Below, one piece after another: positions 11,062 to 64,000 of a DNA stretch of 64,000 nucleotides. Origin of the DNA: Candidatus Parcubacteria bacterium (GTDB lineage Bacteria; Patescibacteriota; Minisyncoccia; UBA6257; HR35); the NCBI GenBank assembly GCA_025999335.1, contig AP024681.1:459547-523546 (forward strand). The letters are read 5' to 3'. How positions within the stretch are numbered: position 1 is the stretch's first letter; each line of letters opens with the position of its first letter. Under the pieces are notes generated by a model. It had not been told where the DNA came from, ran no database searches, and saw only the letters and a list, made by a program, of their open reading frames with translations. A program made the position numbers and the translations under genes.

Positions 11062-11069
11062 TTTAAAAA

Positions 11070-19129: not shown

Positions 19130-19217
19130 TTTATTTATGGGGTTTTTATTAACAATTTAATTATAAATTATATTTAAATTTATTTTTAGTTTACAGTGTG
19201 GATTACGGAATCAAATT

Positions 19218-20929: not shown

Positions 20930-20994
20930 AATATAATTATAAGTTTAGAGTTTATGATTTATATTAAATTTTTCGTTATTGATCTTTAATTTAT

Positions 20995-21519: not shown

Positions 21520-21521
21520 TA

Positions 21522-22064: not shown

Positions 22065-22070
22065 AAGCGA

Positions 22071-22577: not shown

Positions 22578-22676
22578 GATTAATTCAAATGATAAAATTA
22601 ACATTGATTAATCATTATTTATTCTTATAAAATAAATAAGAGCGTTAGTGAATAGCAAATTATTAAAATTTTTAAA

Positions 22677-24383: not shown

Positions 24384-24393
24384 TTTAAAATTT

Positions 24394-25455: not shown

Positions 25456-25495
25456 TATTTTGTAATAAATTATTAAATTATCTACTTAACAATAG

Positions 25496-30234: not shown

Positions 30235-30258
30235 TTAATCAATATTTATTAAAAAAAT

Positions 30259-33340: not shown

Positions 33341-33367
33341 TATAATGAATTTATATCTAAAAAATTT

Positions 33368-38485: not shown

Positions 38486-39106
38486 ATGAAAAAAGAAATA
38501 TCAACCAACAGGGGATTTACTTTAATTGAATTATTAATAGTTCTTGCTCTTATTTCTATTTTAGCCGCTATTTTAATTGTGGTTATCAATCCGACGGAAA
38601 TTTTTAAAAAGAGTCGCGATGCTAAAAGAGTTGGCGATTTGAAAAATGTAGCTCAAGCTATTCAGGCTGCTTTAACCGATAAACCCAATTTAGGCTTAGG
38701 TCGTAATGGCAATACTGAATGCATAGGAGGGAGTCAGCCAACAATATTTTCTTCACAATATATATCAGGAACCAGCAGTTTTGCTACTTTTACAGCGGTA
38801 ACCGGGAGTCCTTCACAAGCTATTGATGGCACTGGATGGATCCCTGTTAATCTAACTAATGTTGCTATAGCTAATTTATCTTCTTATCCAATTGATCCTG
38901 TCAATAGAACAACTACACCTGCCTATTATTATACTTATGCTTGTGATGCCCAGAAAGGTTTTTTTGAAATTGATGCTCGTATGGAATCTAATGTTGACGC
39001 TCATACTACTGACGGCGGAGATAATCCTTTATTATACGAAGAAGGTTCAGGTAAAAAAGGCATCTTACCAACTGCGACAGGAACTAATTTTTATCAGAAC
39101 TATTAA
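38486..39106 (+). CDS. Type IV pilin (class III signal peptide, N-terminal methylation motif)
   Basis: 206 aa. MKKEISTNRG|FTLIELLIVLALISILAAI has a Gly at −1, Phe at +1 and Glu at +5. The mature domain has paired Cys residues. Confidence 0.85.
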   Translation: MKKEISTNRGFTLIELLIVLALISILAAILIVVINPTEIFKKSRDAKRVGDLKNVAQAIQAALTDKPNLGLGRNGNTECIGGSQPTIFSSQYISGTSSFATFTAVTGSPSQAIDGTGWIPVNLTNVAIANLSSYPIDPVNRTTTPAYYYTYACDAQKGFFEIDARMESNVDAHTTDGGDNPLLYEEGSGKKGILPTATGTNFYQNY

Positions 39107-46637: not shown

Positions 46638-47627
46638 ATGCCAATCAAAAAGCAGACAACAAAAACTTTTTTATTCGATCTTCATCTAGATTTAGAAGTT
46701 TATTTGAATAAAAATTTAAGAAAAATTTTAGGAATGAATTTTTACAAATTAGATCGACTTTATGTCGAACGGCATTTTGATTTAGTTCAAGCGAGAAAAG
46801 TTGGCTTAAAATATTTTGTAACCCAAGTTCAAGCAGTAAAATACAATTCTAAAGAAAAAATAATTTTTTCTCTTAATGATTTTGATGAATTTATTGCAAA
46901 TTATGAAAATTTTTTGAAACAAATTAAAAAATATCCCCAGCTTAAAATTATAAAAAGTTTAACTGATTTCAATTCTTTGTCTGAAGATCAAATAGGGGTA
47001 TTTTTAGGCGTTGAGGGTTTGAATTTTATAAATAAAATTGACGAAGTAGAATTATTGATTGACTTAGGCTTTAGAGTCTTTGGTTTAACATGGAATTTTG
47101 ACAATAAAATTGCCGGTGGTCTCAATAGTCATAAGCCATTAACAAAATTTGGCAAAAAAGTTGTTGAACTTTTAGTCGCTAGGGGGTGCATCATCGATTG
47201 TGCTCATTTAAATCATATTTCTGCTTTGGAGGTAATTGATTTAGCGCCTTCTAATTTTATTTTCTCTCATAATAATCTAAATAGCGTTGTCGCTTTTAAG
47301 CAAAACCTAAGCTCAGAAATACTATCTAAAATAAAAACAAAAGAGACATTGATAGGTTTAACTTTTCTTCCTTCATCCTTGACTACTTCTGGTCAACAAC
47401 CTACTTTTAAACATTGGTTTCAGCATTATAAGGAACTAAAAAAAATTAATCCTCAATTTTTAGCTATTGGTACTGACTATTTCGGTTTTGCTTTTAAAGA
47501 TACAGCTTTAGGAGCAAAGAATTATATTGAATTTAATAATAGTTTAATGAAATTTAAAATAAGTAAAGCAAAAATATTTTTTAATACTTTTAACTACTTT
47601 TATAATAAAATTAAGATATGGCAATAG
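46638..47627 (+). CDS. Membrane-dipeptidase family (peptidase M19) protein, cytoplasmic form
   Basis: 329 aa. It has the M19 metal-ligand pattern LFDLHLDL (HxD), GVEGL, GFRVFGLTWNFDNKIAGG, IDCAHLNH, FSHNN and AIGTDYFG. Confidence 0.6.
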   Translation: MPIKKQTTKTFLFDLHLDLEVYLNKNLRKILGMNFYKLDRLYVERHFDLVQARKVGLKYFVTQVQAVKYNSKEKIIFSLNDFDEFIANYENFLKQIKKYPQLKIIKSLTDFNSLSEDQIGVFLGVEGLNFINKIDEVELLIDLGFRVFGLTWNFDNKIAGGLNSHKPLTKFGKKVVELLVARGCIIDCAHLNHISALEVIDLAPSNFIFSHNNLNSVVAFKQNLSSEILSKIKTKETLIGLTFLPSSLTTSGQQPTFKHWFQHYKELKKINPQFLAIGTDYFGFAFKDTALGAKNYIEFNNSLMKFKISKAKIFFNTFNYFYNKIKIWQ

Positions 47628-49402
47628 AAAATTTTGATTCTTTGCGTGCTAACTATTTAAAAGATAATTTGCGTTATAAAAATTATTTAGAGTTTTTAAA
47701 AGAAAGAAGAGAACAGTCAAAGGCAGATTTAGAAAATTTGGCGCAAAATTTTAATATTCCCTTAGAAAAATTACAACAAATACGCACTGATATTAGAAAG
47801 CAGTTATTAAGTACAGAGGATAAAGATTATGCTGCTATTACAACAACATTTCATCTTTTGCCTTGGGAGTTGGAATATTATCTTTTGGCTAAAAAAAGAA
47901 TAAATTTATTAGATTATAAACCTACTCATATTTTTGATATTCCTATTGGTTATATGCAGTCCAAAGATGAAAAACCTCATCAGCTTACAATTGGCGATCG
48001 TTCTTTTAATTACTTAGAATTGATTTTTAATGTTAAAAAAGTTCCTAAAACTTCATATGAATTTTATTTATTGTTAAAAGAAGAATTTAAGAAATTTTTA
48101 GATTTAGAAGAAGTTGATTTTTCTAATTTAAAAGAGATAGTTGACGGATTATTTGCAAATCAACAATTTATTAATTCAAAAATTAAACCTATTTGCAATC
48201 ACTTAAAATCAAAGAATTTACTGAGATTAAATAAACAAGAATTACGAATCAGAGATAATGCTATAGACAAGTTATACGAAGATATTGTTAAAGAGATTAT
48301 ATATTTAATAGTTGACTTTTTAGTTTTTTTTGAAAATGATATTAAGATTAACGAAAAGCGAGAGAAGTTTTTAAAAACAGTTAAATATCTTTTTTCTCAA
48401 GAAGATTTACGTCCAATTTTTAATGCTTTGGGTTTATCATTAAATGTTAATATTGATGATTTTTTAGCTTTTAACGATTATGGGAAAATAATTTTTCTTA
48501 TAGTTATTTTAGGAGGTTTTGATCATATAGGCGCTGAATGGCCCGAAAAAGATAAATTAGGCAAATATAATTTAATAAGAAAATCATTAGGATTAAATTT
48601 AATTACCGAAGTGCCGCCAAATACGTTTGCAGAAAGATTTTTGCTATTTTCTGAATCATCTTTGTCTTCAGAAGCTAATTTTAAGCTTGTAGATTCGTTA
48701 ACCTTGCGTTTGCTTTTTTCTGAGGCGATGCCATCAATTACTTATCTAGCATCTTTTCAGGGTCCTTTTACTGGCACTTTTTCGCCTCTTGCTAAAGAGC
48801 ATCGAGATATTATACGTATTATTGATTTTGTTAGTACTTATAAATTATTTTTACAAGAAATAAAAAATGGAGATATTAAATTTAGCAATAAAATGTTGAT
48901 TGATATTATTAAAAAATATTATGAGACTGTTTTTAAAGGTGGCATTAAGGAAATGTTAAAGAATAAAATTGAAGAGTTTGAAAAAAATTATTTGACAGAT
49001 AATAATTTAGAATATGACTTATTTTTTAGCATAGAACAATTTAATAAATTTTTAAATGAATCAGGCATTAAAGATTACTCTATTAATTTACCTCTTTTAA
49101 TGAGTATCATTTTAGAAAATGAGATTTTTAACGCTTATTTTAAAACTGATATTCAGCGATTAGTTTCTAAAGAAGGCGGAGAACTATTAAATAAATTTTT
49201 AGCTACTGGGAGAAAAATAAAACGTTTAGAAAATTTTTTTGAGCATTTAAATGATAAACAGTTAGTTGGTAATCAAGACGAAAACACAACAATGATGTTT
49301 GGAGGAATCTCTTTGCCGTTTAATTTGCAAACTATTGATAGTGATTTTATAGGTTTAGTTATGCATTTTCGTAGAAAATTAATGTTTGAATCAAGGTTGT
49401 AA
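47618..49402 (+). CDS. Hypothetical cytoplasmic protein with no recognisable motif
   Basis: 594 aa, predominantly helical and Lys/Glu-rich. It is translationally coupled to both neighbours (10-bp and 1-bp overlaps). Confidence 0.5.
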   Translation: MAIENFDSLRANYLKDNLRYKNYLEFLKERREQSKADLENLAQNFNIPLEKLQQIRTDIRKQLLSTEDKDYAAITTTFHLLPWELEYYLLAKKRINLLDYKPTHIFDIPIGYMQSKDEKPHQLTIGDRSFNYLELIFNVKKVPKTSYEFYLLLKEEFKKFLDLEEVDFSNLKEIVDGLFANQQFINSKIKPICNHLKSKNLLRLNKQELRIRDNAIDKLYEDIVKEIIYLIVDFLVFFENDIKINEKREKFLKTVKYLFSQEDLRPIFNALGLSLNVNIDDFLAFNDYGKIIFLIVILGGFDHIGAEWPEKDKLGKYNLIRKSLGLNLITEVPPNTFAERFLLFSESSLSSEANFKLVDSLTLRLLFSEAMPSITYLASFQGPFTGTFSPLAKEHRDIIRIIDFVSTYKLFLQEIKNGDIKFSNKMLIDIIKKYYETVFKGGIKEMLKNKIEEFEKNYLTDNNLEYDLFFSIEQFNKFLNESGIKDYSINLPLLMSIILENEIFNAYFKTDIQRLVSKEGGELLNKFLATGRKIKRLENFFEHLNDKQLVGNQDENTTMMFGGISLPFNLQTIDSDFIGLVMHFRRKLMFESRL

Positions 49403-50562
49403 TGAATTTAAATATTAAACAAGTTAAAGATCAATTAATTAAAGAATTAAATCAATTAAAAACTCCTCAAGGTTTTCTTTTGGCTGGTTTTCCTCATTTT
49501 AACAAGCTTTTTGGTAGAGACTCTTTAATTGTTTCTTGGCAGCTTTTAAATTATGATGTTGAGATTGTCAAAAATACTTTAGAGATTTTATCTAAATTTC
49601 AAGGAGTGGCAGTTAGCGAGATGTCTGAAGAAGAACCGGGGAAAATATTGCACGAGCATATAATAGGTTTTGATAAACATTCTAAAGGAAACTGGCCCTT
49701 TCCTTATTATGGTTCAATTGATTCAACATTGCTTTATCTAATTTTATTTTATTTTTATTTTAATAAAACCAAAGATGCTGATTTTATTAAACAATTTTGG
49801 GCAAACATTGAAAAAGCGGTTGATTGGATTCTTAATTACGGCGATAGGGATAACGATTTATTTATTGAATATAAGAATAAAAACCCTAATGGGCTTTATA
49901 ACCAAGGTTGGAAAGATTCAAATTTTATAAAATCAAAACTGCCAATTGCTATTGTTGAAGTTCAGGGTTATGAATATTTTGCTTTAGTTAAGATCAGCGA
50001 ATTGATTAAAGTTCTTAATATTAATAAAGAATTTTTAGATGTATTAAAAGAACGCGCAGATAAACTTCAAGAAAAATTTAATCAAAATTTTTGGATGGAT
50101 GATAAAAAATATTTTGCTTTAGGTTTAGATGGTGATAAAAAACAAATAAAATATATAACTTCAAATCCCGGGCATTTACTTTTTACAGAAATTGTTGATA
50201 ATGATAAGATTGATTATATTGTTAAAAAGTTATTTTCGGAAGAATTATGGACTGAATATGGTATAAGAACCCATTCAATTTATGAAGAAAATTTCAATCC
50301 TTTGTCTTATCATTTAGGTTCTATCTGGCCCCATGATAATTGGATTATTGCTCAAGGTTTAAAAAAATTAAATTATTTAGAAGAATACAACAGAATTAAA
50401 TCTGCTCTTTTAAATGCATTTAAAACAATTGGTTATTTGCCTGAGTATTACGGAGTAATTAACAACGAAATCAAATTAGAAAATTTGGAAAAAACTCCTG
50501 ATTATCCTCAAGCTTGGTCGTCAGGTGCTTTGTTAAATTTTATTTTAGAAGATGAAAAATGA
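49402..50562 (+). CDS. GDE_C-family glycoside hydrolase (second paralog, catalytic domain only)
   Basis: 386 aa. LAGFPHFNKLFGRDSLIVSW matches the aGyhWF…GRD motif, and GWKDSNF…VEVQGYEY is present. Confidence 0.6.
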   Translation: MNLNIKQVKDQLIKELNQLKTPQGFLLAGFPHFNKLFGRDSLIVSWQLLNYDVEIVKNTLEILSKFQGVAVSEMSEEEPGKILHEHIIGFDKHSKGNWPFPYYGSIDSTLLYLILFYFYFNKTKDADFIKQFWANIEKAVDWILNYGDRDNDLFIEYKNKNPNGLYNQGWKDSNFIKSKLPIAIVEVQGYEYFALVKISELIKVLNINKEFLDVLKERADKLQEKFNQNFWMDDKKYFALGLDGDKKQIKYITSNPGHLLFTEIVDNDKIDYIVKKLFSEELWTEYGIRTHSIYEENFNPLSYHLGSIWPHDNWIIAQGLKKLNYLEEYNRIKSALLNAFKTIGYLPEYYGVINNEIKLENLEKTPDYPQAWSSGALLNFILEDEK

Positions 50563-52762: not shown

Positions 52763-53113
52763 TTGAAATATGCAATTAAAGGTTTAAATTATGCTTTTAA
52801 ACACCATCGTCATTTTAAAATAGAACTTTTCGTTGTCATTTTAGTAATTATCTTAAGTTTTATTTTTGATCTTAATACCCTCGAATTTCTTTCAATTCTT
52901 TTTGCCATAGTTTTAGTTTTGATTTCTGAAATTTTTAATAATTTAATTAAAGAAACTTTGAATTTTGTCTATCAAGAATATCATCAAAAAGTAAAATTCA
53001 TTAAAGATTTATCAGCAAGAGCTGTTTTAATTGCGGTTATTTACAGCTTAATTGTCGGAATAATAATCTTTTTACCAAAGATATTTAGCTTGTTTATATA
53101 TCCCCTTAGTTGA
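52763..53113 (+). CDS. dgkA: Diacylglycerol / undecaprenol kinase (DgkA family)
   Basis: 116 aa with a TTG start. It has three TM helices and AIKGLNYAFKHHRHFKIE…SEIFNNLIKE (the DgkA E-x-xN-x-IE motif). Confidence 0.65.
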   Translation: MKYAIKGLNYAFKHHRHFKIELFVVILVIILSFIFDLNTLEFLSILFAIVLVLISEIFNNLIKETLNFVYQEYHQKVKFIKDLSARAVLIAVIYSLIVGIIIFLPKIFSLFIYPLS

Positions 53114-53147: not shown

Positions 53148-53948
53148 ATGAATTCAATGATAAAAAGATTAATTAAAAAATCAATTTTTGTTTTAAGAAA
53201 TTATGGTTTAAAGGTTTTTTTAATTAAAGCTTTAAAATTTCCTCTCAATAGGATAAATCTTTTAAGACAAAAGTTAGGAGAAAAAAGAGCTTATAAAAAT
53301 TCCCAAAGAGTTATTTACAAATTAAAACAATTCAATTCTAATAATCCTGAAGAAGTTTTTAATTTTGCTTGGAAATTCTATTTTGGTTTAATTAGACCAA
53401 TGCAAATTAAAGAAGAATTCCTTGAACTTTTAAAAATCTTTCAACAGCTAAACCCCCAATATATTATGGAAATCGGAACAGCTAATGGCGGAACTCTATT
53501 TTGTTTTTGTAAATTAGCTAAAGATGATGCTACGATAATATCTATTGATCTTCCAGAAGGACCATTTGGCGGAGGTTATCCCAAATGGAGAATTCCAATT
53601 TATCAAGCTTTTGCTAAAGAAAATCAAAAATTATATCTCATAAGAGAAGATTCCCATAAAGAAGAAACCTTAAATAAAGTAAAAGAAGTTCTTAATGGCA
53701 ATCAATTAGATTTTCTTTTCATTGATGGTGATCACAGTTATGAAGGAGTTAAAAAGGATTTTGAAATGTATTCCCCTTTAGTTAGAAAAGGTGGGATAAT
53801 TGCATTTCATGATATTAATATTCATTTAAATGCACCAGAAATAGGCGTTAATAAATTTTGGAATGAGATAAAAAATCGCTTTGTCCATAAAGAAATGATT
53901 AAAGGCCATATTTCAGGTTGGGCAGGGATTGGTGTTTTATTTTTATAA
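53148..53948 (+). CDS. Class I SAM-dependent methyltransferase (CmcI/TylF-like sugar O-methyltransferase)
   Basis: 266 aa. It has MEIGTANGGTLFCF (a glycine-rich SAM loop) and FLFIDGDHSYEGVKKDFE…GGIIAFHDI. Confidence 0.6.
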   Translation: MNSMIKRLIKKSIFVLRNYGLKVFLIKALKFPLNRINLLRQKLGEKRAYKNSQRVIYKLKQFNSNNPEEVFNFAWKFYFGLIRPMQIKEEFLELLKIFQQLNPQYIMEIGTANGGTLFCFCKLAKDDATIISIDLPEGPFGGGYPKWRIPIYQAFAKENQKLYLIREDSHKEETLNKVKEVLNGNQLDFLFIDGDHSYEGVKKDFEMYSPLVRKGGIIAFHDINIHLNAPEIGVNKFWNEIKNRFVHKEMIKGHISGWAGIGVLFL

Positions 53949-53962
53949 TTAGTTTATAACTA

Positions 53963-54907
53963 ATGAATAAGCAACAATTAATAGAAAAATTAGATTATTC
54001 AGCACGAAAATATTTGTTTCCTTTAAAGACAAGGTTTTTAAAATTTCCTTTTATTACCTTAAGAGATGCTTTTATAACTATTTTGTTTAACAAAGTTTTA
54101 AGACAAAAAATTTATTTTTTAGTAAAAGCAAAAACCTTTTTTGAAGAAGATTTTTATTGCATTTTCCCCGAATCAACAGATGTTTATTTTTATGGAGCTT
54201 ATGTTTATTGTAATCCTGAATACAGATTGACCAGGTTTATAATAAAACATAACTTTAAAGATAATTTAATATTTTTTGATCTCGGAGCTCATTATGGATA
54301 CTATTCAGTTTTAATGAGCAAACTATATCCTCAAAGCAAAGTGTTTGCTTTTGAACCAGATAGAGGTGTTTTAGAAATTTTGAAAAAAAATAAAAGAGAA
54401 AATATCGAAATAATTCCTAAGGCAGTTGGTTCTTTTAATGGCAAAACAAAATTTTATTCTTTTGACTTATTAAGTTCAGGAGTCTCAACTTTAAATATAG
54501 AAAACTTAAAAAAAATTCCCCTTACTCAACAAAAGCCGAATGAATACGAAGTTGAAGTTATTACCTTAGATAGTTTTTGTGAAGAAAATAAAATAATTCC
54601 TGATTTTATCAAAATTGATGTTGAAGGAGCTGAAGAAGATGTTTTAAGGGGATCAACTAAGTTATTAAAAAATAAATCACCAATTATTGCTCTTGAAATT
54701 TGGTTTCGACCCACACCTCCCGAAAATTATCTTAATGCTGTTAATATTTTAAAGAATAATGAATTTAAAATGTTCGCCATAACTGAAAACGGTGATTTAG
54801 AAGAAGTAAATTATGACAATATTTTTGAATATTTTAAAAAACTTGAAGAAAGATATAAAAAAATAAATCAAGGAATTGTTTTTGATAATTTAATTTTTCT
54901 TAAATGA
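53963..54907 (+). CDS. FkbM-family methyltransferase
   Basis: 314 aa. IFFDLGAHYGYYSVLMSKLYPQSKVFAFEPDRGVLEIL is the FkbM domain signature. Confidence 0.65.
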   Translation: MNKQQLIEKLDYSARKYLFPLKTRFLKFPFITLRDAFITILFNKVLRQKIYFLVKAKTFFEEDFYCIFPESTDVYFYGAYVYCNPEYRLTRFIIKHNFKDNLIFFDLGAHYGYYSVLMSKLYPQSKVFAFEPDRGVLEILKKNKRENIEIIPKAVGSFNGKTKFYSFDLLSSGVSTLNIENLKKIPLTQQKPNEYEVEVITLDSFCEENKIIPDFIKIDVEGAEEDVLRGSTKLLKNKSPIIALEIWFRPTPPENYLNAVNILKNNEFKMFAITENGDLEEVNYDNIFEYFKKLEERYKKINQGIVFDNLIFLK

Positions 54908-56052
54908 AAAAAATTCTCTTTATTGGAGATAATTGGTTTGGAGATTTAGGTGGGAGAAAGAAAATAGTTTTGGCTTTAATGAATTTTTTAATCAATGACT
55001 ATAATATTTATTTACTCACCATAGATACTAAAATTAAAAAGGAATCAATTAAAGATTTTAAAAAAGATTTAGAAGAAGACATCAACATTTATCCTTATTT
55101 TTTTCCAAGGAATGTATTTTTTTATTTCAAACTTTTAATCCTCTTCGGAATAAAAATTTTAAAGATAAGACCCAACCTTATAATTTCTTTTGGCGGGGGA
55201 CCTCATTCTAATGCGAATTTTTTCTATATAAGTAAAATCTTTGCACCAAAAAGTAAAATAATTTTTATTGAACAAGGAAATACAAGGCATTTATTCAATA
55301 AACAAAATCTGATAGTGAAACTTTTAACTAAAATAGCATTTAAAAGTGTAGATAAAATAATTACGGCAGGCGAGGGAGTAGCTGAGGATGTAAAAAATTT
55401 ATTTAATTTAAGAAACAATCAAGTAACTTTTGTTTATAATTTTGTTGATTTTGAAAAAATTAAAAATTTAAGCTTGGAAGCAATTGAAGAAAAAATTTTT
55501 GCAGATAAATTCAAACCAATAATATTAGCAGTTAATAGGTTAGATTTATATCAAAAAGATATTTTAACTTTATTAAACGCCTTTTCTGTTGTTGCTCAAA
55601 ATGTAGATGCGTATTTAGTAATCATAGGTGAAGGACCTGATAGAGTCAAAGTAGAGAACAAAATTAAAGAATTAAATTTAGAGTCGAAAGTTTTTTTGTT
55701 AGGTCATAAAAATAATCCCTATAAATATATGAAAAATTCAGATGTTTTTGTTTTAAGTAGTTTCCATGAGGGAATGCCTATTGTTTTAATTGAAGCTATG
55801 GTTTGCAATCTACCGGTTGTTGCTACTGATTGTGATTTTGGACCAAGAGAAATAATTAAAGATGGACATAATGGATTTTTAGTTAAGGTCGGCGATTATG
55901 AAACTATGGCAAAAAAAATAATTGAATTAATCAAACACAAGGAGTTAATAAGAAAATTTGTAGAAAATTCGTTTTCGATTTTACCTTACTTTTCTTCTAA
56001 TTATGCTTTAGAAAAATATAAAGAAATTATAAATTCAGTAATGACACAATGA
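54904..56052 (+). CDS. Glycosyltransferase family 4
   Basis: 382 aa with the C-terminal motif EGMPIVLIEAMVCNLPVVATDCDFGPREII. Confidence 0.75.
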   Translation: MKKILFIGDNWFGDLGGRKKIVLALMNFLINDYNIYLLTIDTKIKKESIKDFKKDLEEDINIYPYFFPRNVFFYFKLLILFGIKILKIRPNLIISFGGGPHSNANFFYISKIFAPKSKIIFIEQGNTRHLFNKQNLIVKLLTKIAFKSVDKIITAGEGVAEDVKNLFNLRNNQVTFVYNFVDFEKIKNLSLEAIEEKIFADKFKPIILAVNRLDLYQKDILTLLNAFSVVAQNVDAYLVIIGEGPDRVKVENKIKELNLESKVFLLGHKNNPYKYMKNSDVFVLSSFHEGMPIVLIEAMVCNLPVVATDCDFGPREIIKDGHNGFLVKVGDYETMAKKIIELIKHKELIRKFVENSFSILPYFSSNYALEKYKEIINSVMTQ

Positions 56053-57020
56053 AAATAGTTTTAATTTTTAACAAATCGTTTCCTTGTACAACAGGGCAAT
56101 ATATTTTGAAGATTTTAGAAAAAGAAAATGAAGTTTTTGTTTTATCACCAAAAGATAATTTTCAAAAAATTCACGAAATCCAACCAGATTTTATTTTAGT
56201 AATCGATGATAGTAGTCATTATATTCTAGATGTTAATTATCATCCTAAGGTAATATGGATTATTGATTCACATACTTCTTTTATCTGTGATAAAGTGATG
56301 GTTAAGAGTTTTGATATTGTTTTTGTGGCTCAGAAAGAATACGTTGAGAAATTTAAAAAATATAATCAACATGTTTATTGGCTTTCTTTAGCTTGTGATC
56401 CAGATTGGCATAGTAAACAGAATTTAGAAAAAATTTATGATGTTGCTTTTATTGGACAAATGGGAAGAGGCTGGCGGAGGAAATTATTAATAAATTTAAA
56501 AAAAGATTTCCCTAACTCTTTTATTTCTTCAGCTGACTGTAAAGATATTGGCAAAATCTATTCTCAAGCTAAAATAGTTGTTAATTATAATGTTAATAAT
56601 GATATTAATATGCGGGTTTTTGAGGCTTTGTGTTCTGGAAATTTACTTTTAACAAATAAAATAAAAGATAATGGTTTTAATGAATTATTTGAAGATAGAA
56701 AACATTTAGTGGTTTATAATGGGACTTATAGAGATTTAAAAGAAAAAATTAAATATTATTTAGAAAATGAAGAAGAAAGAGAAAAAATGGCTGAAAATGG
56801 AAGGAATTTAGCTTTATCTTTACATACTTATCAACAGAGAGCAGATTTTATGGTTAAAAAAATTTTAGAACTCAAAAACGAAAAATTTTATGATTATTCA
56901 AATTTAAGCTATTCTCTAATGAAATTAAATTTATTCATTAGATTTTTATTTTGGAAAGTGATTTATTTAAGGGTTTGGCAAGTTTTAGCCGAATTAAATG
57001 CTCTTTTAAGATTTAAGTAA
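56049..57020 (+). CDS. CgeB/DUF3880-like glycosyltransferase
   Basis: 323 aa with VAFIGQMGRGWRRKLL and MRVFEALCSGNLLLTN. Confidence 0.55.
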   Translation: MKIVLIFNKSFPCTTGQYILKILEKENEVFVLSPKDNFQKIHEIQPDFILVIDDSSHYILDVNYHPKVIWIIDSHTSFICDKVMVKSFDIVFVAQKEYVEKFKKYNQHVYWLSLACDPDWHSKQNLEKIYDVAFIGQMGRGWRRKLLINLKKDFPNSFISSADCKDIGKIYSQAKIVVNYNVNNDINMRVFEALCSGNLLLTNKIKDNGFNELFEDRKHLVVYNGTYRDLKEKIKYYLENEEEREKMAENGRNLALSLHTYQQRADFMVKKILELKNEKFYDYSNLSYSLMKLNLFIRFLFWKVIYLRVWQVLAELNALLRFK

Positions 57021-57022
57021 TT

Positions 57023-58030
57023 ATGCCTAAAGTTTCTATTATTACCCCAACTTATAATGTAGAAAAATTTATTGAAAGAGCTATTAAAAGTGTATTATGG
57101 CAGACATTTCAAGATTGGGAAATGATTATTGTTGATGATGGCTCAAAAGATAAAACTGTAGAAATAGTAAAAAAATATGTTGAAAAAGATCCAAGAATAA
57201 AACTTATTGAACGAAAAGAAAATACAGGAGGGCCAGCAATTCCAAGAACAATAGCTTGCAAGGAAGCTAAAGGAGAATACATAGCTTTTTTAGATCAGGA
57301 TGATATTTTTTATCCAGAAAATTTAGAAAAGAGGGTAAGATATTTAGACGAACATCCTGAAATAGACATTTTATTTACGATGGCTTGGACTTTTGATGAA
57401 GATACTAAAAAAATAGTTAATTATGAACACGGTGGTCCGGTTAATTTAATTGTTAGAAGAAAAGTTATTGAAGAAGCTGAATATTTTAAACCTGAACAAA
57501 ACGGAGTTGATGAAATAGGAATGCTTTATAGATATTTTTTAAAAGCCGAAAACAATTTTTCTAAGCAAGTTATTCTAACTAAAGAACCCTTGTCTTTATA
57601 TTCGAGACATCCCGGTCAAGGTTCTTATGTTGAAAATAAAGACCCGATTAAATTTGTCAAAAGAATCGAGTCTTTAATAGACGAATTTTCGGAAGAAAAA
57701 ATAAGTAATATCAAGATAGATGAAAAATTTAGGAACTACATAAAGAAGATTAGATATATTTGGTATTCAAGGTTGGGTAATTTTTATTGTTTAGCGGGTG
57801 ATTTTAAAAAAGGAAAAGAGGCATTTAAAAAATCTTTGAGATTACATTTTAATCTTTTTTCTTTGTTTTTTTTGATTCTTTCTTTTTTAGGATATAAAAA
57901 TTATAGGAAAATTGAATTTTTATTGAGAATGATTCAAAGAAAAATTTTATGGAAATTAAAAGTTTTTGTTTATAAGAGAAAATTTAAAGAAAGTTATGAT
58001 AAAGCCTTAAAAATACTTCAAGAATCATGA
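57023..58030 (+). CDS. Glycosyltransferase family 2
   Basis: 335 aa. It has VSIITPTYNVEKFIERAIKSVLWQTFQDWEMIIVDDGSKDKT and a DxD (FLDQDD). Confidence 0.8.
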   Translation: MPKVSIITPTYNVEKFIERAIKSVLWQTFQDWEMIIVDDGSKDKTVEIVKKYVEKDPRIKLIERKENTGGPAIPRTIACKEAKGEYIAFLDQDDIFYPENLEKRVRYLDEHPEIDILFTMAWTFDEDTKKIVNYEHGGPVNLIVRRKVIEEAEYFKPEQNGVDEIGMLYRYFLKAENNFSKQVILTKEPLSLYSRHPGQGSYVENKDPIKFVKRIESLIDEFSEEKISNIKIDEKFRNYIKKIRYIWYSRLGNFYCLAGDFKKGKEAFKKSLRLHFNLFSLFFLILSFLGYKNYRKIEFLLRMIQRKILWKLKVFVYKRKFKESYDKALKILQES

Positions 58031-59124
58031 AAAGCAAAATTCTTTTAATTTTAAGCAGTGAACAATTTTCCGGAGGAGAAAAAGTAGCTTTAGAAATCGC
58101 TAAAAACTTAAAATCAAATTTTGATTTTATCTTTTTTTTACCTGGAAAACCACAAAAAGAATTTGAAGAAGAACTAAAAAATTTTGAATTTTATTATTCC
58201 CCCCAAAAATCATTTTTAGAGATAATTAAAAATTTAAAGAAAACAATCACTTTTTTAAAGCCGTCAATTATCAATACCCATGGTACAAGAGCTAGCGTTT
58301 TTTTGAAACTTGTTCTTTTTCTCACTTTAAAGAAAAAGTTTAAATTTATTTATACTCTCCACGGTGCTCATTTTGTAAGAAGAAAATTTTCTGTTAATTT
58401 TATTTTTTTGATTTGGGAATTAATTACGAATTATTTGTTTGTAGATTATTTAATTTGCGTCGGTAAAGATGATTATGACCTCATTAAGAAACTAAAATTA
58501 ATTAATAAAAATAAATTGTTTTTAATAGAGAATGGAATAAATTTTGAAGAGTATCAAAACATAGAAAAAGGATATTTAAGAAAAAATTTTAATTTAAAGA
58601 ACGAAATAATTTTAACTACTATTTGTAGACTTCACTATCCAAAGGATCTTAAAACTCTTATTAATGCAGTTAATTTAATCAAAGACGAAAATATAGTTTT
58701 ATTTATAGTTGGCGATGGTCCTGACAGAAATGAATTGGAAGATTTAGTTAGAAATTTAAATTTGGAAAATAAAATAAAATTTTTAGGATTTAGAAAAGAA
58801 ATAAAAGAAATCTTACAAGACACTGATATTTTTATTCTCTCAACCCGTTGGGAGGGTTTACCTTTAGTTATTTTAGAAGCCTGGGCGACAAAAAAACCGG
58901 TTATTGCTTCAGATGTCCATGGTATTAGAGGCTTAATAAAAAATGAAGAATCAGGAATTTTGTTTAAATTTGGTGATCTCGAAGATTTGAAGAAAAAAAT
59001 TTTGCTATTGATCAAGAATGAGAATTTGAAATTCAAAATAGCGAACAATGGTTATGAATTAGTTAAAAAGAAATATAATATTTTTCAAATGGCCCAGAGT
59101 TATAAAGAAATTTATAATAGATGA
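58027..59124 (+). CDS. Glycosyltransferase family 4
   Basis: 365 aa with EGLPLVILEAWATKKPVIASDVHGIRGLI. Confidence 0.75.
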   Translation: MKSKILLILSSEQFSGGEKVALEIAKNLKSNFDFIFFLPGKPQKEFEEELKNFEFYYSPQKSFLEIIKNLKKTITFLKPSIINTHGTRASVFLKLVLFLTLKKKFKFIYTLHGAHFVRRKFSVNFIFLIWELITNYLFVDYLICVGKDDYDLIKKLKLINKNKLFLIENGINFEEYQNIEKGYLRKNFNLKNEIILTTICRLHYPKDLKTLINAVNLIKDENIVLFIVGDGPDRNELEDLVRNLNLENKIKFLGFRKEIKEILQDTDIFILSTRWEGLPLVILEAWATKKPVIASDVHGIRGLIKNEESGILFKFGDLEDLKKKILLLIKNENLKFKIANNGYELVKKKYNIFQMAQSYKEIYNR

Positions 59125-59972
59125 AAAACTTAAAAAAATTACTTTTAAATTACTTTCATTTTATAAGATCTCAGCTCCCTCTTACTAAAATCAAAACTAC
59201 ACCTTTTACTAAAATAAAAATAATTTTGGGAGCAATTTTCAATATTTTCCTTAAACCTCTTCAATTAATTAACCAAAATTTTTATTTTCGATTAAGAAAA
59301 TTCGTTCTAAGTGAAATATATAAAAATATTCAGATAGAAATTCAAAATAAAAAATTTAAGATTAGAGATGATATTGATTTAATGACTCTGTTAGCTGATG
59401 AGGGAATAGATGAATTTTTTAAAATAAGAGACAAGATTTTTTTAGATATAGGAGCTCACATTGGCAAATACTCTATTTTATATTCAGATTTTTACGAAAA
59501 AATTTATGCGTTTGAACCTGAACCCGATAATTTTAATTTATTAAAAGAAAACATTAGATTAAATAACTTAAAAGGAAAAATATTTCCCTTTCAATTAGCG
59601 CTTTCAGACAAAACCAGTAAAATAGAATTTTATTTATCTCCCTATTCAGTTGCCAATTCTCTTATTAAAAATGAAGGATATAAAAAAATTTTAGTTGATA
59701 CAATTACTTTAGATGAATTTTTGAAACAGGAAAAAATTAATTTTAACAACATCTCTTGTATCAAAATTGATGTCGAGGGAGCCGAAGATATGGTTATAAA
59801 AGGCATGGAAAAATCATTCTCATTTTTAAGATGTAAAATAATTATTGAAATTTTGGAAAACAATTCAGAAAATTTTAAATTTATTTCAGAATTTATTAAA
59901 AAGTACAATTTTAAAATAAAAAAAATTAAAGGTGATTATTATTTAGCTTATTATGAAAATTCTTCAAGTTAA
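59121..59972 (+). CDS. FkbM-family methyltransferase (second copy)
   Basis: 283 aa with FLDIGAHIGKYSILYSDFYEKIYAFEPEPDNFNLLKENI. Confidence 0.65.
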   Translation: MKNLKKLLLNYFHFIRSQLPLTKIKTTPFTKIKIILGAIFNIFLKPLQLINQNFYFRLRKFVLSEIYKNIQIEIQNKKFKIRDDIDLMTLLADEGIDEFFKIRDKIFLDIGAHIGKYSILYSDFYEKIYAFEPEPDNFNLLKENIRLNNLKGKIFPFQLALSDKTSKIEFYLSPYSVANSLIKNEGYKKILVDTITLDEFLKQEKINFNNISCIKIDVEGAEDMVIKGMEKSFSFLRCKIIIEILENNSENFKFISEFIKKYNFKIKKIKGDYYLAYYENSSS

Positions 59973-61059
59973 TAAACTTTATTATCCTTGGATAGGTGGA
60001 GTAGAAACAATTGTTAAACAGATTGCTGAAGGGTTGAATAAAAAAAATAGTTTAGAGATTGATGTTTTGGTTTGTAATGATAAAAATGAAACTGTTATTG
60101 AGGAAATTAATGGAGTGAAAATAATGCGGGTCCAAAGTTTTGGTATATTTTGGAGTATGCCAGTTTCTTTTTATTTCTTAAATTTTTACAGAAAAATTGC
60201 TAAAAATTATGATTTAATATTTTTACACTATCCTTTCCCTTTAGGTTTCGTTGCTTACACTTTGTTTTCAAGAAACAAAAATTTAGTTGTTTGGTATCAT
60301 TCAGATATTGTTAGACAAAAGCTTTTAGAAATTTTCTTTCGTCCATTTCATCTTTATGCTCTTAAAAAATCAAAAAAAATTTTTGTTTCCAATCCTAATT
60401 TAATCAAAAGTTCAGATTATTTAAAAAAATTTAAAGAAAAATGTATAGTTATTCCTTTTGGCATTGATTTAAATTATTTTAGAGAAAATGAAGAAATTAA
60501 AAAAGAAGCCGAAGAAATAAGAAAAAAATTTGGCACCCCTCTTATTCTCTCAATCGGAAGGCTTTCTTATTATAAAGGATTTACCTATTTAATTAGGGCT
60601 AGTAAAGAAATTGAGGGGAAAATTTTAATAATCGGGGAAGGGAAATTGAAAAACAAACTTTTAAGATTGATTAATGATCTCAACTTAGAGAATAAGGTTT
60701 TTATTATCCCACCTGTTAATGACTTAAGACCCTATTATTTAGCTTGTGATATTTTTGTTTTACCATCGATTCATAAATCAGAAGCTTTTGGTATTGTGAT
60801 TTTGGAATCAATGGCTTTTGGGAGGCCAGTAATTTCAACAGAATTAGGAACAGGTACAAGTTGGTTAAATATTAATAATGAAACAGGTTTTGTGGTTCAA
60901 CCTAAAAATGAAAAAGAATTAGTTGAGAAAATTAATTTACTTTTGCATAACAAAGAACTTTGTCAAAGATTTAATCAAAACGTAAAAGAAAGGGTAAGGG
61001 GTTTTTCTTTGGATAATTTTTGGGAAAACTTAAAGAAAGAATTAATATCTATTTTTTAA
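59953..61059 (+). CDS. Glycosyltransferase family 4
   Basis: 368 aa with SEAFGIVILESMAFGRPVISTELGTGTSWL. Confidence 0.75.
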   Translation: MKILQVNKLYYPWIGGVETIVKQIAEGLNKKNSLEIDVLVCNDKNETVIEEINGVKIMRVQSFGIFWSMPVSFYFLNFYRKIAKNYDLIFLHYPFPLGFVAYTLFSRNKNLVVWYHSDIVRQKLLEIFFRPFHLYALKKSKKIFVSNPNLIKSSDYLKKFKEKCIVIPFGIDLNYFRENEEIKKEAEEIRKKFGTPLILSIGRLSYYKGFTYLIRASKEIEGKILIIGEGKLKNKLLRLINDLNLENKVFIIPPVNDLRPYYLACDIFVLPSIHKSEAFGIVILESMAFGRPVISTELGTGTSWLNINNETGFVVQPKNEKELVEKINLLLHNKELCQRFNQNVKERVRGFSLDNFWENLKKELISIF

Positions 61060-61456
61060 ACACTAAAAATCTTGAAAAAAGAAAATTGAAAATATAAACC
61101 AAAGCGCTACTTAAAATTATTGAAAGTAGATAGAAAATTTTAAACCACTCTGTAAATACAAAGACTAAAATTGAGTACAACAAAAGCCCTAGAGTTTGGA
61201 AAGAATAAAAACCAACTAATCTTTTAAAAAATAACTCTCTTTTTGTTTTAAAGGTAATAAAAGCTTGAAAGAAAAAATTAAAAATTAAACTTAAAAGATA
61301 ACTACAAATTGCTGAAAGAAGGTAAAACAATCTTAATTTTTCAGTAAAGATGTAAGCTAAGGATAGATTTATTAAAAGAGCCACCAATCCGCCAATTCCA
61401 TACAAAACAAATTTTTTAAACTCTTCTTTTAATTTCATTTTTGTAAAAGACACCAT
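61049..61456 (-). CDS. GtrA-family membrane protein (polyprenyl-phosphate-sugar translocation)
   Basis: 135 aa with four TM helices. FVLYGIGGLVALLINLSLAYIF is the GtrA-like N-terminal pattern. Confidence 0.6.
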   Translation of the reverse strand: MVSFTKMKLKEEFKKFVLYGIGGLVALLINLSLAYIFTEKLRLFYLLSAICSYLLSLIFNFFFQAFITFKTKRELFFKRLVGFYSFQTLGLLLYSILVFVFTEWFKIFYLLSIILSSALVYIFNFLFSRFLVFKK

Positions 61457-63576
61457 ACATCAGCACAACCTATAGGTTTAAAACCTTTGTTTATAAAATT
61501 ATTCGCCTCACTTAAATAAAATTCTCCAAGTTGAGGATGGAAAACTATGGCTAATTTTAAACTTTTTAATTTATTTTCATCTTCTAAACATTTTGGAGAA
61601 AGTTGAATATTTTTCCTTAAATACCACATTGCGATTCCACCATAATATAACCCCATTTGATTTTGTCCTAAGCATATTTCATTATGTTTTAATTGATTTT
61701 TTAACTCTTTTAACACCATAATATCTTTCTCGCCTAAAATCGAATATTTATTTATAAAGAAATCTAATTTTTGGTAAGAGAAATAAAAAGCAATAATTAA
61801 TAATAAAGTCGAAACAAAAATTCCTGTATATTTCAATTTTTCATAAAGATAAATAAATAATAAACTATTAAAAACAGCAACGATTGGCAAAAAGAAAACA
61901 ACGCCAAAAGGATGGGTTGACCATTGAAAAAAAACTAAAGTGTTAATAATTGGCATTAAAAGTAAGGGCAAGAAAATTTTATATTTTTTAAAGTAATTGA
62001 AAAGATAAACAAAGAAACCCAAAACACCTAACCAAAGAAAAACTTTACTAAAATTAAGTTCCATTCTTCCATAAATATCTCTAATCCAAGATTGGAAAGA
62101 AGACCTTGCCGCTCTTCCTTTAAAAGCTTCTATTAGATCAATGAAACCATCAAAGCTTCTTAAAATATAGATGTGCAAAAGATTAAGAGCAAAAACAAAA
62201 ATTGAAACAATTGGCAAAACAATTAATAAAATTTTTCTTTCTTTGTTAAATTCTCTTCTTTTGTCAAATAAAAGATAAAACCAAATTGATGCTGGCATAA
62301 AGAAATAAAACCAAGCCATCAAACCTCCTAAAAATATTGAGGCGATCAGAAAATATAAATAAATATTCTTTTTAGAATAATAGTAAAAAATAAAAAGCGC
62401 AAAAGTAATTAAAGCTGTTGGTAGTCCAAAAACAGATAATTCAAAAGTTGTCCCATAATGTATTGTTCCGGGAAGAAAAATAAAAATTAAAGTAATGATG
62501 GTAGGGAGGAGTAAATTTTTAAAAATTTTTTGTAAAGCAAAATAGAAAAATATTATACCGATAATGAACATTAAAAAGATGCCAGCTCTGGTTGTAAGCT
62601 CCGAAATACCAAAAATTTTATAGAGAAAATAAGTTGGCAAAAGGTAAAACATTGGATGGTGAGTATAAAAAGTATCTTCTTTGCTGTTTTTCAATTTTTC
62701 AAAATCAAAATTATCTTTAGTTAAATAGCCATTAACATATTTACCAAATTTCATTTCTAATGGACCAATATTTAACCAATTTAAAACAGCTAAACCGCTT
62801 TCTCCATTTTGATCGGATGTAACATTAATAAAGAGTTTATTAAGATTATTTAAAGCTAATAGAAAATATATTGCCAACAATAAAAGCAAAATAAAACTAT
62901 TAATTTTCCATCCCCAGCCAATCTTATTTTTCAAATCTATTAGAAACTTTATAGTAATTAATCCATGTTTTAAAGGAAAAAGTTTTGATTCGCCTTCGCG
63001 AGGAGAGTAATTGATGTGCGTTTCTTTAAATTTAAATCCAGCTAAAATAGTTTTTATCTTTAATTCTTGAGATAAAGGCATATCACCGGATGCAAGGTTG
63101 ATTTTTTTTAGAATATCTTTTTTGAAAATCATCATACCTGACCAGGAGTCTTTTAAGCTTATATTAAAAAGAAGTTTGACTATAAAATTAAAAAATTTAT
63201 TGCCCCAAATTCTTGAAAAGCTAAGTGCATTTTTATTTTGCAAAGGAAATCTTGAACAATTTAAAAAATCTAAATTGTTTTTCTCAAAATAATCTACTAA
63301 TTCTAAAATTTTTTCTCCAGGATATTGACCATCAGCATCTAAAGTAACAATAACATCTCCTTTTGCTTCTCGAAAACCTTTTTGCAGTGCATAGCCATAA
63401 CCTTGTTTTGTTTCTTTGATAACTCGAGCACCTAATTTTTTAGCAATATTCGCTGTTTTATCAGTTGAATTGTTATCTACAACAATAATTTCGAACACCT
63501 CTTTAGGTATTTTTTCAATTGTTTTGGCTATGCCTTTTTCTTCGTTGTAGGCAGGAATTATTACTGATATTTTCAT
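61435..63576 (-). CDS. Fusion protein: N-terminal GT2 polyprenyl-phosphate glycosyltransferase (GtrB/DPM1-like) plus a C-terminal ~480-aa polytopic membrane domain (GT-C-like)
   Basis: 713 aa. The N-terminus is MKISVIIPAYNEEKGIAKTIEKIP…VVDNNSTDKT…TLDADGQYP (GT2 with DAD). The C-terminal half has ≥11 hydrophobic helices and a first-loop acidic motif (FDFEKLKNSKED). Confidence 0.7.
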   Translation of the reverse strand: MKISVIIPAYNEEKGIAKTIEKIPKEVFEIIVVDNNSTDKTANIAKKLGARVIKETKQGYGYALQKGFREAKGDVIVTLDADGQYPGEKILELVDYFEKNNLDFLNCSRFPLQNKNALSFSRIWGNKFFNFIVKLLFNISLKDSWSGMMIFKKDILKKINLASGDMPLSQELKIKTILAGFKFKETHINYSPREGESKLFPLKHGLITIKFLIDLKNKIGWGWKINSFILLLLLAIYFLLALNNLNKLFINVTSDQNGESGLAVLNWLNIGPLEMKFGKYVNGYLTKDNFDFEKLKNSKEDTFYTHHPMFYLLPTYFLYKIFGISELTTRAGIFLMFIIGIIFFYFALQKIFKNLLLPTIITLIFIFLPGTIHYGTTFELSVFGLPTALITFALFIFYYYSKKNIYLYFLIASIFLGGLMAWFYFFMPASIWFYLLFDKRREFNKERKILLIVLPIVSIFVFALNLLHIYILRSFDGFIDLIEAFKGRAARSSFQSWIRDIYGRMELNFSKVFLWLGVLGFFVYLFNYFKKYKIFLPLLLMPIINTLVFFQWSTHPFGVVFFLPIVAVFNSLLFIYLYEKLKYTGIFVSTLLLIIAFYFSYQKLDFFINKYSILGEKDIMVLKELKNQLKHNEICLGQNQMGLYYGGIAMWYLRKNIQLSPKCLEDENKLKSLKLAIVFHPQLGEFYLSEANNFINKGFKPIGCADVWCLLQK

Positions 63577-63640
63577 TGATTAATTATAAAATAAAAATTA
63601 ATTTTTAATTTTCATTATTTTATTTTAGCAAAGTTAATTA

Positions 63641-64000
63641 TTAAAAAAGTTTATGTTTTCTAAGCCAATGTTTTATAGCTTTTTCCACTAATTTAGAGCT
63701 TGAATTAATTTTGCCACCCCCAACGCCAAAAACCATTTTACAACCTATTTTTTTGCAAACCTTAACTTCAGGAATATTTTTTCTTGTGCGATCGCCACCA
63801 TTAACGAAAATGTCAGGCGTTAATTTTAAAAGTTCTTGAGACACGCTCATATCTTTAGGATGGCGAGGGTGTTTAGTCAAAATCACTTTATCAACCCATT
63901 TAATTGATCCAATTAAAGCTTTTCTGTCTTTTTGGGGTATTAAAACATATCCCTTTTTAGCCTTTAGCCAATTATCATTATTTAAAATAACAACTAATTC
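63641..64000 (-). CDS. Cytidylyltransferase-like nucleotidyltransferase (RfaE domain II / TagD-like), C-terminal part; gene continues beyond window end
   Basis: The track shows an 81-aa ORF, but the frame stays open upstream to the window edge (…ELVVILNNDNWLKAKKGYVLIPQKDRKALIGSIKWVDKVILTKHPRHPKDMSVSQELL…). The motif FVNGGDRT and the layout resemble sugar-phosphate nucleotidyltransferases. Confidence 0.55.
   Translation of the reverse strand, partial: ELVVILNNDNWLKAKKGYVLIPQKDRKALIGSIKWVDKVILTKHPRHPKDMSVSQELLKLTPDIFVNGGDRTRKNIPEVKVCKKIGCKMVFGVGGGKINSSSKLVEKAIKHWLRKHKLF

Follow-up and report, generated by a model that had tools for sequence, protein, structure and literature searches.

At the end of a 64,000-nucleotide stretch of DNA (contig AP024681.1, positions 459,547 to 523,546; here called the window) lies a cluster of glycan-biosynthesis genes. 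The sequence comes from the hot-spring Candidatus Parcubacteria metagenome-assembled genome (MAG) KatS3mg097, which belongs to an ultra-small organism; the CgeB-like enzyme and the GT2/GT-C fusion described below match its proteins KatS3mg097_504 and KatS3mg097_510, on a 680-kb contig, at 100% identity. Eight genes on the plus strand (53148-61059) form a cassette that encodes, in order, a CmcI-like methyltransferase (MT), an FkbM-family MT, a family 4 glycosyltransferase (GT4), a CgeB-like glycosyltransferase (GT), a family 2 glycosyltransferase (GT2), a second GT4, a second FkbM-family MT, and a third GT4. Convergent with them, on the minus strand, are 2 genes: one for a small membrane protein of the GtrA family and one for a single polypeptide that joins a GT2 domain to a membrane glycosyltransferase of the GT-C type (Table 1). 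Every complete gene scores above its Pfam gathering cut-off, the weak PMT_2 match of the fusion excepted. An initial annotation, made from the letters of this DNA, had named the same families; Pfam and NCBIfam hidden Markov models (HMMs) bear them out for the eight-gene cluster, GtrA, and the fusion, and its coordinates are exact.

Table 1. Genes of the glycan locus, followed by its neighbors and other features of the window. SAM, S-adenosylmethionine; ORF, open reading frame; TM, transmembrane.
Feature	Length	Position	Strand	Matches and remarks
CmcI/RMNT-like class I SAM O-methyltransferase	266 aa	53148-53948	+	Methyltransf_24 1.7e-17, RMNT_CmcI 3.3e-11; first cassette gene
FkbM-family methyltransferase 1 (FkbM1)	314 aa	53963-54907	+	Methyltransf_21 3.6e-18; weak V_cholerae_RfbT match
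GT4a	382 aa	54904-56052	+	Glycos_transf_1 3.3e-42; E-x7-E motif EGMPIVLIE
CgeB-like GT-B glycosyltransferase (KatS3mg097_504)	323 aa	56049-57020	+	Glyco_trans_1_2 4e-26, DUF3880
GT2	335 aa	57023-58030	+	Glycos_transf_2 1.4e-39; motifs DDGSKD, DQDD
GT4b	365 aa	58027-59124	+	Glycos_transf_1 1.3e-38, Glyco_transf_4 3e-12; motif EGLPLVILE
FkbM-family methyltransferase 2 (FkbM2)	283 aa	59121-59972	+	Methyltransf_21 2.9e-23
GT4c	368 aa	59953-61059	+	Glycos_transf_1 4e-40, Glyco_transf_4 2e-15; last cassette gene
GtrA-family small membrane protein, candidate polyprenyl-phosphate-sugar flippase	135 aa	61049-61456	-	PF04138 GtrA_DPMS_TM 6.3e-16
GT2/GT-C fusion (KatS3mg097_510)	713 aa	61435-63576	-	GT2 5.5e-35; weak sub-cut-off PMT_2
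RfaE-domain-II/cytidylyltransferase-like nucleotidyltransferase, 3' part	119 codons	63641->64000	-	cut by the window end
DgkA-family (diacylglycerol/undecaprenol kinase)		52763-53113	+	DAGK_prokar 2.1e-28; 34 bp upstream of the operon
ORF inside GT4b		58635-59048	antisense	treated as spurious
ORF inside FkbM2		59642-59908	antisense	treated as spurious
Kelch-repeat protein (1082 aa), then family X DNA polymerase with PHP domain		11070-16029		
Type IV pilus block		19889-27542		PilM, three small single-TM proteins, PilB, PilT, PilC, prepilin peptidase
L25 and SLT_2 genes		29635-31704		followed by a minus-strand gene
Alpha-glucan set		31652-37456	-	562-aa protein without Pfam match, glycogen synthase (PF05693), GH57, GT4/GT5
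Separate pilin-like N_methyl protein		38486-39106		
594-aa protein without Pfam match, then GDE_C/MGH1-like hydrolase		47618-50562	+	last base of the first gene is the first of the hydrolase start codon

Four of the seven junctions within the cassette are 4-bp ATGA overlaps, at 54904, 56049, 58027, and 59121, where the initial annotation had placed them; these overlaps are consistent with an operon. FkbM2 and GT4c overlap by 20 bp (59953-59972), and the 3' end of GT4c runs 11 bp into the convergent GtrA gene. The operon has a GC content of 25.5% versus 28.5% in the rest of the window, and lies below every upstream window of the same size (minimum 26.6%). This is a small dip with no sharp boundary, and composition lends weak support to the label of an island.

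Motifs expected of the enzyme families are intact: DxD in both GT2 domains (that of the cassette and that of the fusion), E-x7-E in all three GT4s, and a glycine-rich SAM motif in the three MTs. The CgeB-like GT has no sequence relative in the PDB. In the cassette GT2, the C-terminal part is hydrophobic and weakly TPR-like, with a single sub-threshold TPR match at residues 248-274 and one hydrophobic segment at 272-290. Pfam and a hydrophobicity scan show the eight proteins of the cassette to be soluble or peripheral, with no carrier-specific enzyme among them; starting, flipping, and attaching a glycan therefore need other proteins.

The 3 methyltransferases belong to 2 families. The first scores 43.7 bits against PF04989 (cut-off 23.2) and 21 bits against the NCBIfam rhamnosyl O-methyltransferase equivalog NF045824 (cut-off 400); by sequence it is a member of the RMNT/CmcI family that falls short of the substrate-level equivalog. 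It carries the glycine-rich motif EIGTANGG, has weak PDB matches to SAM-dependent O-methyltransferases, and has orthologs of 69-77% identity on contigs L003, L006, L007, L008, and L013 from related lineages. The other two enzymes clear the cut-off of 37.7 bits for TIGR01444, FkbM1 with 111.5 bits and motif DLGAHYG, FkbM2 with 106.9 bits and motif DIGAHIG, and are 39% identical to each other over 139 aa. FkbM1 has orthologs of 43-79% identity in relatives other than L012, and FkbM2 has a distinct ortholog (56-66%) in all relatives that carry the cassette. Since each has its own ortholog, the duplication is old. Thus the three methyltransferases of the initial annotation, two FkbM paralogs included, are confirmed by Pfam and, for the FkbM pair, by TIGR01444; of its label "CmcI/TylF-like," the first half stands through the RMNT_CmcI match, and no TylF model is among the matches at E<=0.01. 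The CmcI/RMNT and FkbM families, the latter related to the RfbT family, include sugar O-methyltransferases. A heavily O-methylated glycan, as the initial annotation suggested, is a reasonable inference from the 3 enzymes.

The GtrA protein and the GT2/GT-C fusion

The GtrA gene and the end of the fusion gene share 22 bp. The fusion consists of a polyprenyl-phosphate GT2 domain resembling DPMS, GtrB, and ArnC (residues ~1-220) and a GT-C membrane glycosyltransferase (~225-713), whose membrane segment shows 12 hydrophobic peaks, some of them overlapping. The best NCBIfam matches of the GT2 domain are the dolichol-phosphate (Dol-P) hexose transferase and AglJ models, at ~1e-33 and below their cut-offs (114 bits against a cut-off of 325 for the AglJ model TIGR04182); the PgfS model follows at 2.7e-13, far below its own. 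The best sequence match in the PDB is the Pyrococcus furiosus DPMS, 5mlz (8e-17, residues 1-252).

We modeled the fusion with AlphaFold2 on a 31-sequence alignment (mean pLDDT 92.3) and searched the predicted structure against the PDB with Foldseek. In the model, the N-terminal 220-250 residues match DPMS, ArnC, and GtrB; the C-terminal part has its best TM-score, 0.60 when normalized to the target, with ArnT, and also matches PglB, STT3, and AglB. In the same alignment, D255, which supplies the acidic residue expected in the first external loop of a GT-C transferase, lies just past the first TM helix and is conserved in at least 90% of sequences. The soluble domain at the C-terminus has three invariant cysteines (C635, C704, and C709) and a fourth, C663, conserved in at least 90%, as expected for an extracytoplasmic domain. 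The fusion has no STT3 Pfam match and its sequence no WWD motif. Sequence and model together lead us to assign a putative polyprenyl-phosphate-sugar synthase to the GT2 domain, and the family match makes GtrA a candidate flippase. The polyprenyl-phosphate-sugar route that the initial annotation read into this pair is thereby borne out at the level of prediction.

Among the best 80 loci in GTDB representative genomes, 6 match the fusion over its full length and the others over the GT2 domain only. Five of the 6 come from Patescibacteria-type or unclassified bacteria, and one from a genome binned as Gammaproteobacteria. On contig L016, which matches a protein named as Candidatus Paceibacterota, an 843-aa protein (10001-12532) holds PMT_2, GtrA, and GT2 domains, all 3 components in one chain, among genes for an epimerase, a UDP-glucose dehydrogenase, a GT4, MTs, and a GT4-GtrA fusion.

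The locus in related lineages

We compared the contigs of relatives by tblastn, with flanks that reach 10 kb on each side of the reference gene. At least four related lineages keep the eight-gene block in order and orientation (56-83% identity), while its flanks vary. It is complete in L003/L004/L005 (66-83%), in L007/L008 (56-70%), and in L013 from bacterium HR35 (56-73%). L006 carries the block without GT4a (57-70%, FkbM1 only 43%), and L012 carries it with a replaced 5' end (66-75%): positions 18859-21361 hold a GT2, an RGP-family gene (PF03214, UDP-arabinopyranose-mutase-like), and a 160-aa CmcI fragment, a swap that suggests a different sugar at that position. Toxin-antitoxin-like genes border the glycan locus in L003 (2885-3782; DUF433, DUF5615, HicB) and in L013 (21634-22109; ParE-like).

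The flanks hold several functions of glycan assembly. Upstream of the cassette, L003/L004 encode an epimerase, a UDP-glucose dehydrogenase, and a second epimerase, and L007 encodes a Wzy_C protein (3.4e-22), a TPR protein, a phosphoglycosyltransferase (PGT) of the Bac_transf family, and a HAD-like gene. Downstream of it, L008 has a convergent MOP/Wzx-type flippase (Polysacc_synt_3 4.6e-12, MurJ, MatE). A more distant cluster, L009/L010, combines a CgeB-like GT and a CmcI-like MT with a GT2-Polysacc_synt fusion and with rhamnose and UDP-glucose dehydrogenase genes.

The fusion and GtrA travel partly with the cassette and partly without it. Both genes converge on the cassette in the window and in L006, L012, and L013. 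GtrA adjoins the fusion in L006, L011, L012, L013, L018, and L022, and is two genes away in L015. In L011, a fusion of 81% identity stands with its GtrA beside a different glycan cluster, made up of GT2, GT4, carbamoyltransferase, Wzy-like (weak O_anti_polymase match), FkbM, sugar C-methyltransferase, epimerase, and CgeB-like GT genes. Wzx and Wzy_C belong to the locus of the fusion in L015 and L020 (as does GtrA in L015), and L022 holds the fusion with GtrA and Wzx. No fusion occurs in the sequence retrieved for L007/L008. Comparison of these two contigs with the window, L006, L012, and L013 had given rise to the idea that PGT/Wzx/Wzy_C and GT2/GtrA/GT-C are alternative service modules for one cassette; as a general rule this is rejected, because the fusion has Wzx for a neighbor in L015, L020, and L022, and Wzy_C too in the first two.

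Some homologs bear labels from outside the candidate phyla radiation (CPR): among the close relatives of the CgeB-like GT and of the fusion are proteins assigned to Calescibacterium (56%), to WOR-3 (65%), and to the "Gammaproteobacteria" bin L019 (43%). These labels point to mis-binning or to lateral transfer between hot-spring organisms.

A proposed two-module pathway and its alternatives

We propose, with somewhat more than even confidence, that the genes form two modules which work together in a surface-glycan locus of variable content in Parcubacteria, and that the canonical genes for initiation, flipping, and ligation are encoded at other sites of this genome. What we observe are the families of the enzymes, their intact motifs, the arrangement as an operon, the synteny, and the predicted fold of the fusion; what we infer is that the carrier is a lipid, that sugars are O-methylated, that partner genes exist at other sites, in which order the steps follow, and what the acceptor is. 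A Bac_transf-type PGT would initiate. In the first module, the cassette, the five GTs would extend the oligosaccharide on polyprenyl diphosphate at the cytoplasmic face of the membrane, and the three SAM methyltransferases would probably O-methylate the lipid-linked product. Wzx would then flip it, and a Wzy_C-family enzyme would finally polymerize it or ligate it to a protein or wall polymer, the genes for all three partners lying elsewhere in the genome. In the second module (61049-63576, minus strand), the GT2 domain of the fusion would charge polyprenyl phosphate with one sugar, GtrA would flip the polyprenyl-phosphate-sugar, and the fused GT-C domain would transfer the sugar, outside the membrane, to the exported glycan or to its protein or polymer target. 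We favor a Wzx-dependent, Wzy_C-using pathway because L007/L008 place the cassette amid PGT, Wzy_C, and Wzx, and L015 and L020 place the fusion with Wzx and Wzy_C.

The relatives also bear on what the initial annotation had concluded. Its cluster of glycan-biosynthesis genes with three SAM methyltransferases is supported by families and synteny. It had called the GtrA route the only visible export path, and apart from GtrA and its partner the window indeed shows no membrane machinery for a glycan; as exporter of the operon's glycan, however, the route does not hold up, since Wzy_C, PGT, and Wzx flank the cassette in L007/L008 and the fusion stands with Wzx in L015, L020, and L022. A canonical Wzx/Wzy system next to the cluster, which it had set down as an explanation that would displace its own, has a near counterpart, seen in relatives and not beyond the end of this window.

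Several observations weigh against our proposal. Pfam scans of window ORFs of at least 100 aa, complemented by a hydrophobicity scan, reveal no Wzx, Wzy, Wzy_C, ATP-binding cassette (ABC) exporter, PGT, or NDP-sugar dehydratase or epimerase, in agreement with the initial annotation, which had listed Wzx/Wzy, ABC exporter, and dehydratase genes as missing. In these scans, two antisense ORFs and three small single-TM ORFs (one under the hydrophobicity scan only) are without assignment, and the sole unexplained multi-pass protein is a DUF2339 protein. PGT, Wzx, and Wzy_C are likewise absent from the flanks of L006, L012, and L013, which extend 10 kb to each side of the reference gene. Among the best 120 of 7,993 homologs of the L007 PGT (E<=1e-20; at least 45% identity), none is traceable to the source contig. 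In L014 (6940-11326), a GT2 and a Bac_transf PGT directly follow L25 and SLT_2; in the window, the same pair is followed by a minus-strand gene and no GT2 or PGT. The GTs of the cassette (all five), the CmcI-like MT, and the fusion stay below the NCBIfam equivalog cut-offs, so that assignments stop at the family, short of sugars, linkages, and substrate specificities, and the presumed methyl acceptors follow from family precedent only.

An unlikely alternative, though the best placed of those we considered, is that two separate systems are neighbors here. The operon would work free of a polyprenyl carrier, for example in direct O-glycosylation of a secreted protein in the cytoplasm, begun by the weakly TPR-like GT2, or in making a methylated glycolipid. 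To the second part of this alternative we give the same low weight: the fusion and GtrA would O-glycosylate Ser/Thr-rich surface proteins or pilins, in the manner of streptococcal GtrB/PgtC2. The soluble or peripheral nature of all eight cassette proteins, which include no carrier-specific enzyme, fits such a division, as do the weak TPR match of the GT2, the DgkA gene upstream of the operon, and the GT4 families, among whose members are glycolipid synthases and the adhesin glycosyltransferases SdgA/B and GtfA; matches to all of these score far below cut-off here. The fusion pair of L011 adjoins a different cluster, and in streptococci GtrB and the GT-C enzyme PgtC2 O-glucosylate Ser/Thr-rich disordered regions (PMC12041528). 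Against a division, the adjacency of cassette and fusion is kept in four lineages only 40-75% identical, and in L007/L008 the cassette is embedded among PGT, Wzy_C, and Wzx. The TPR match, moreover, is one sub-threshold repeat, and the window revealed neither accessory Sec nor any other means of exporting a protein that is already glycosylated.

Slightly less probable, and likewise unlikely, is a self-contained polyprenyl-monophosphate pathway in which, in this lineage, the fusion and GtrA replace PGT, Wzx, and Wzy_C. The fusion's GT2 domain would start the chain, the cassette would elongate and methylate it, and, once GtrA had flipped the finished chain, the GT-C domain would pass it en bloc to protein or wall, a sequence of steps we hold equally improbable. 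If true, it would amount to a minimal archaeal-like glycosylation pathway on a monophosphate carrier in a CPR bacterium, comparable to the AglJ/AglK pathways on Dol-P in archaea. The distribution of genes speaks for it in part: the window, L006, L012, and L013 combine cassette, GtrA, and fusion, and the flanks retrieved for them lack PGT, Wzx, and Wzy_C, whereas L007/L008, which have those 3 functions, show no fusion. So do the failure to trace a PGT ortholog to the source contig among the best matches, the window's L25 and SLT_2 genes without the GT2 and PGT that follow them in L014, the Dol-P hexose transferase and AglJ as best NCBIfam matches of the GT2 domain in the fusion, and Foldseek matches to PglB, STT3, and AglB whose E-values are on a par with ArnT's. 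However, the flanks cover only 10 kb on each side, and elsewhere the fusion does stand with Wzx and Wzy_C (L015, L020) or with GtrA and Wzx (L022). Its GT-C part is nearest to ArnT by TM-score and weakly PMT_2-like, both being monosaccharide transferases, and shows neither the WWD motif nor an STT3 Pfam match; the GtrA-GT2-PMT_2 triple fusion of L016 resembles a self-sufficient shuttle for a single sugar. Nor do we know of any bacterial GtrB-type product that is elongated.

Slightly less probable again is a homopolymer or short-repeat polysaccharide that depends on an ABC transporter, its chain length set by a terminal O-methyl cap and its Wzm/Wzt genes elsewhere. Methyl caps are a known chain-terminating signal in ABC-dependent pathways (E. 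coli O8/O9a, the Geobacillus S-layer glycan), and the cassette does place several methyltransferases among GT4 and GT2 genes; against this, neither the window nor the L003-L016 flanks contain an ABC-transporter gene (Wzm/Wzt, ABC-2), and in relatives it is Wzx-type flippases and Wzy_C that co-occur. An intracellular polymethylated polysaccharide needing no export, like the mycobacterial methylglucose lipopolysaccharide (MGLP) and methylmannose polysaccharide (MMP), would suit a window without an exporter but with an alpha-glucan cluster (33368-37456) and the GDE_C/MGH1-like hydrolase (49402-50562); we reject it as very improbable, since these genes lie 2.6 to 16 kb off and are unlinked to the cassette in relatives, and the cassette has membrane or export functions at its flanks: in L007/L008 a PGT, Wzy_C, and Wzx, and in other lineages GtrA with the GT-C fusion.

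Neighboring genes and known systems

Two neighbors adjoin the locus. The truncated nucleotidyltransferase gene lies 64 bp upstream of the fusion and is co-directional with it. Its 119-aa C-terminal fragment has no Pfam match, scores 40 bits against the rfaE_dom_II model TIGR02199 (E=2.4e-10, cut-off 181), and has weak PDB matches to the cytidylyltransferases 3glv, TagD, and ECT. The sugar-phosphate nucleotidyltransferase of the initial annotation is thus upheld at the level of the superfamily and not more finely. This gene is not seen beside the fusion in any relative examined, and its membership in the glycan system is uncertain. On the other side, DgkA, for which lipid-carrier salvage is a possible function, is confined at this position to the window and the identical Logan contig L002, and is absent there in L003, L006, L007, L012, and L013; not being conserved beside the cassette, it is rejected as a part of the system. 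Elsewhere in the window, the type IV pilus and pilin-like proteins are possible glycan acceptors; the initial annotation had named the pilin, Ser/Thr-rich anchored proteins, or an S-layer as candidates.

The locus offers a concrete, conserved gene set for a surface glycan that is probably O-methylated. The conserved pair of GtrA and GT2/GT-C fusion marks a glycan locus with strain-variable content, much like an O-antigen locus, and should be a useful marker for strain-level surface variation, host attachment, and phage receptors. We found no directly relevant literature on CPR surface glycans or on glycan methylation by FkbM enzymes.

Among known systems, the cassette resembles the clusters for undecaprenyl-diphosphate-linked glycans that depend on Wzx/Wzy or an O-oligosaccharyltransferase, among them loci for O-antigen, capsule, and the S-layer or cell-wall glycans of Gram-positive bacteria. 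It shares with them a coupled run of GT4 and GT2 genes with sugar methyltransferases, a GC content slightly below the surroundings, strain-variable content around conserved genes, and, in the orthologous L007/L008, the presence of PGT, Wzy_C, and Wzx. It differs in that the PGT, flippase, and Wzy_C genes are outside the cluster in the window, L006, L012, and L013, in that the sole candidate sugar-nucleotide gene here is the truncated nucleotidyltransferase, and in its host, a monoderm-like Patescibacterium with a genome of ~0.7 Mb. One example of these clusters is slg of Geobacillus stearothermophilus, an S-layer glycan locus whose product bears an O-methyl cap. In archaea, N-glycosylation on Dol-P is carried out by AglJ/G/I/E/P/B in Haloferax and involves AglK in Methanococcus. 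The likeness to these pathways lies in the best matches of the fusion's GT2 domain, in the company of GTs and a methyltransferase, and in the UDP-glucose dehydrogenase beside the cassette in relatives; unlike them, the fusion scores far below the cut-offs, has no STT3/AglB-type domain or WWD motif, and has a GT-C part that is ArnT/PMT-like.

The closest counterparts of the second module are the three- and multi-component systems of transmembrane glycosylation, in which a GT-A polyprenyl-phosphate-sugar synthase, a flippase, and a GT-C transferase act together (PMC11127046, PMC8035078). As in GtrA-GtrB-GtrV, CsbB-GtcA-YfhO, and GacI/J/K/L, all 3 components are present in or beside a glycan cluster. 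By contrast, the GT-A and GT-C parts here form one 713-aa polypeptide, to which GtrA is fused as well in L016; the 2 reviews make no mention of GT-A/GT-C fusions. The streptococcal GtrB/PgtC2 pair is similar in coupling a GtrB-like synthase to a GT-C transferase that acts outside the membrane, and dissimilar in that the proteins here are only distantly related to it; by that precedent, Ser/Thr-rich proteins are plausible acceptors. The locus as a whole is a real and fairly ordinary glycan cluster, an annotation-level result that reveals no new mechanism. Within it, fold prediction and family matches make the fusion and GtrA fit a fused three-component system with its first and third components joined, and the GT2/GT-C fusion is a notable variant of that scheme.

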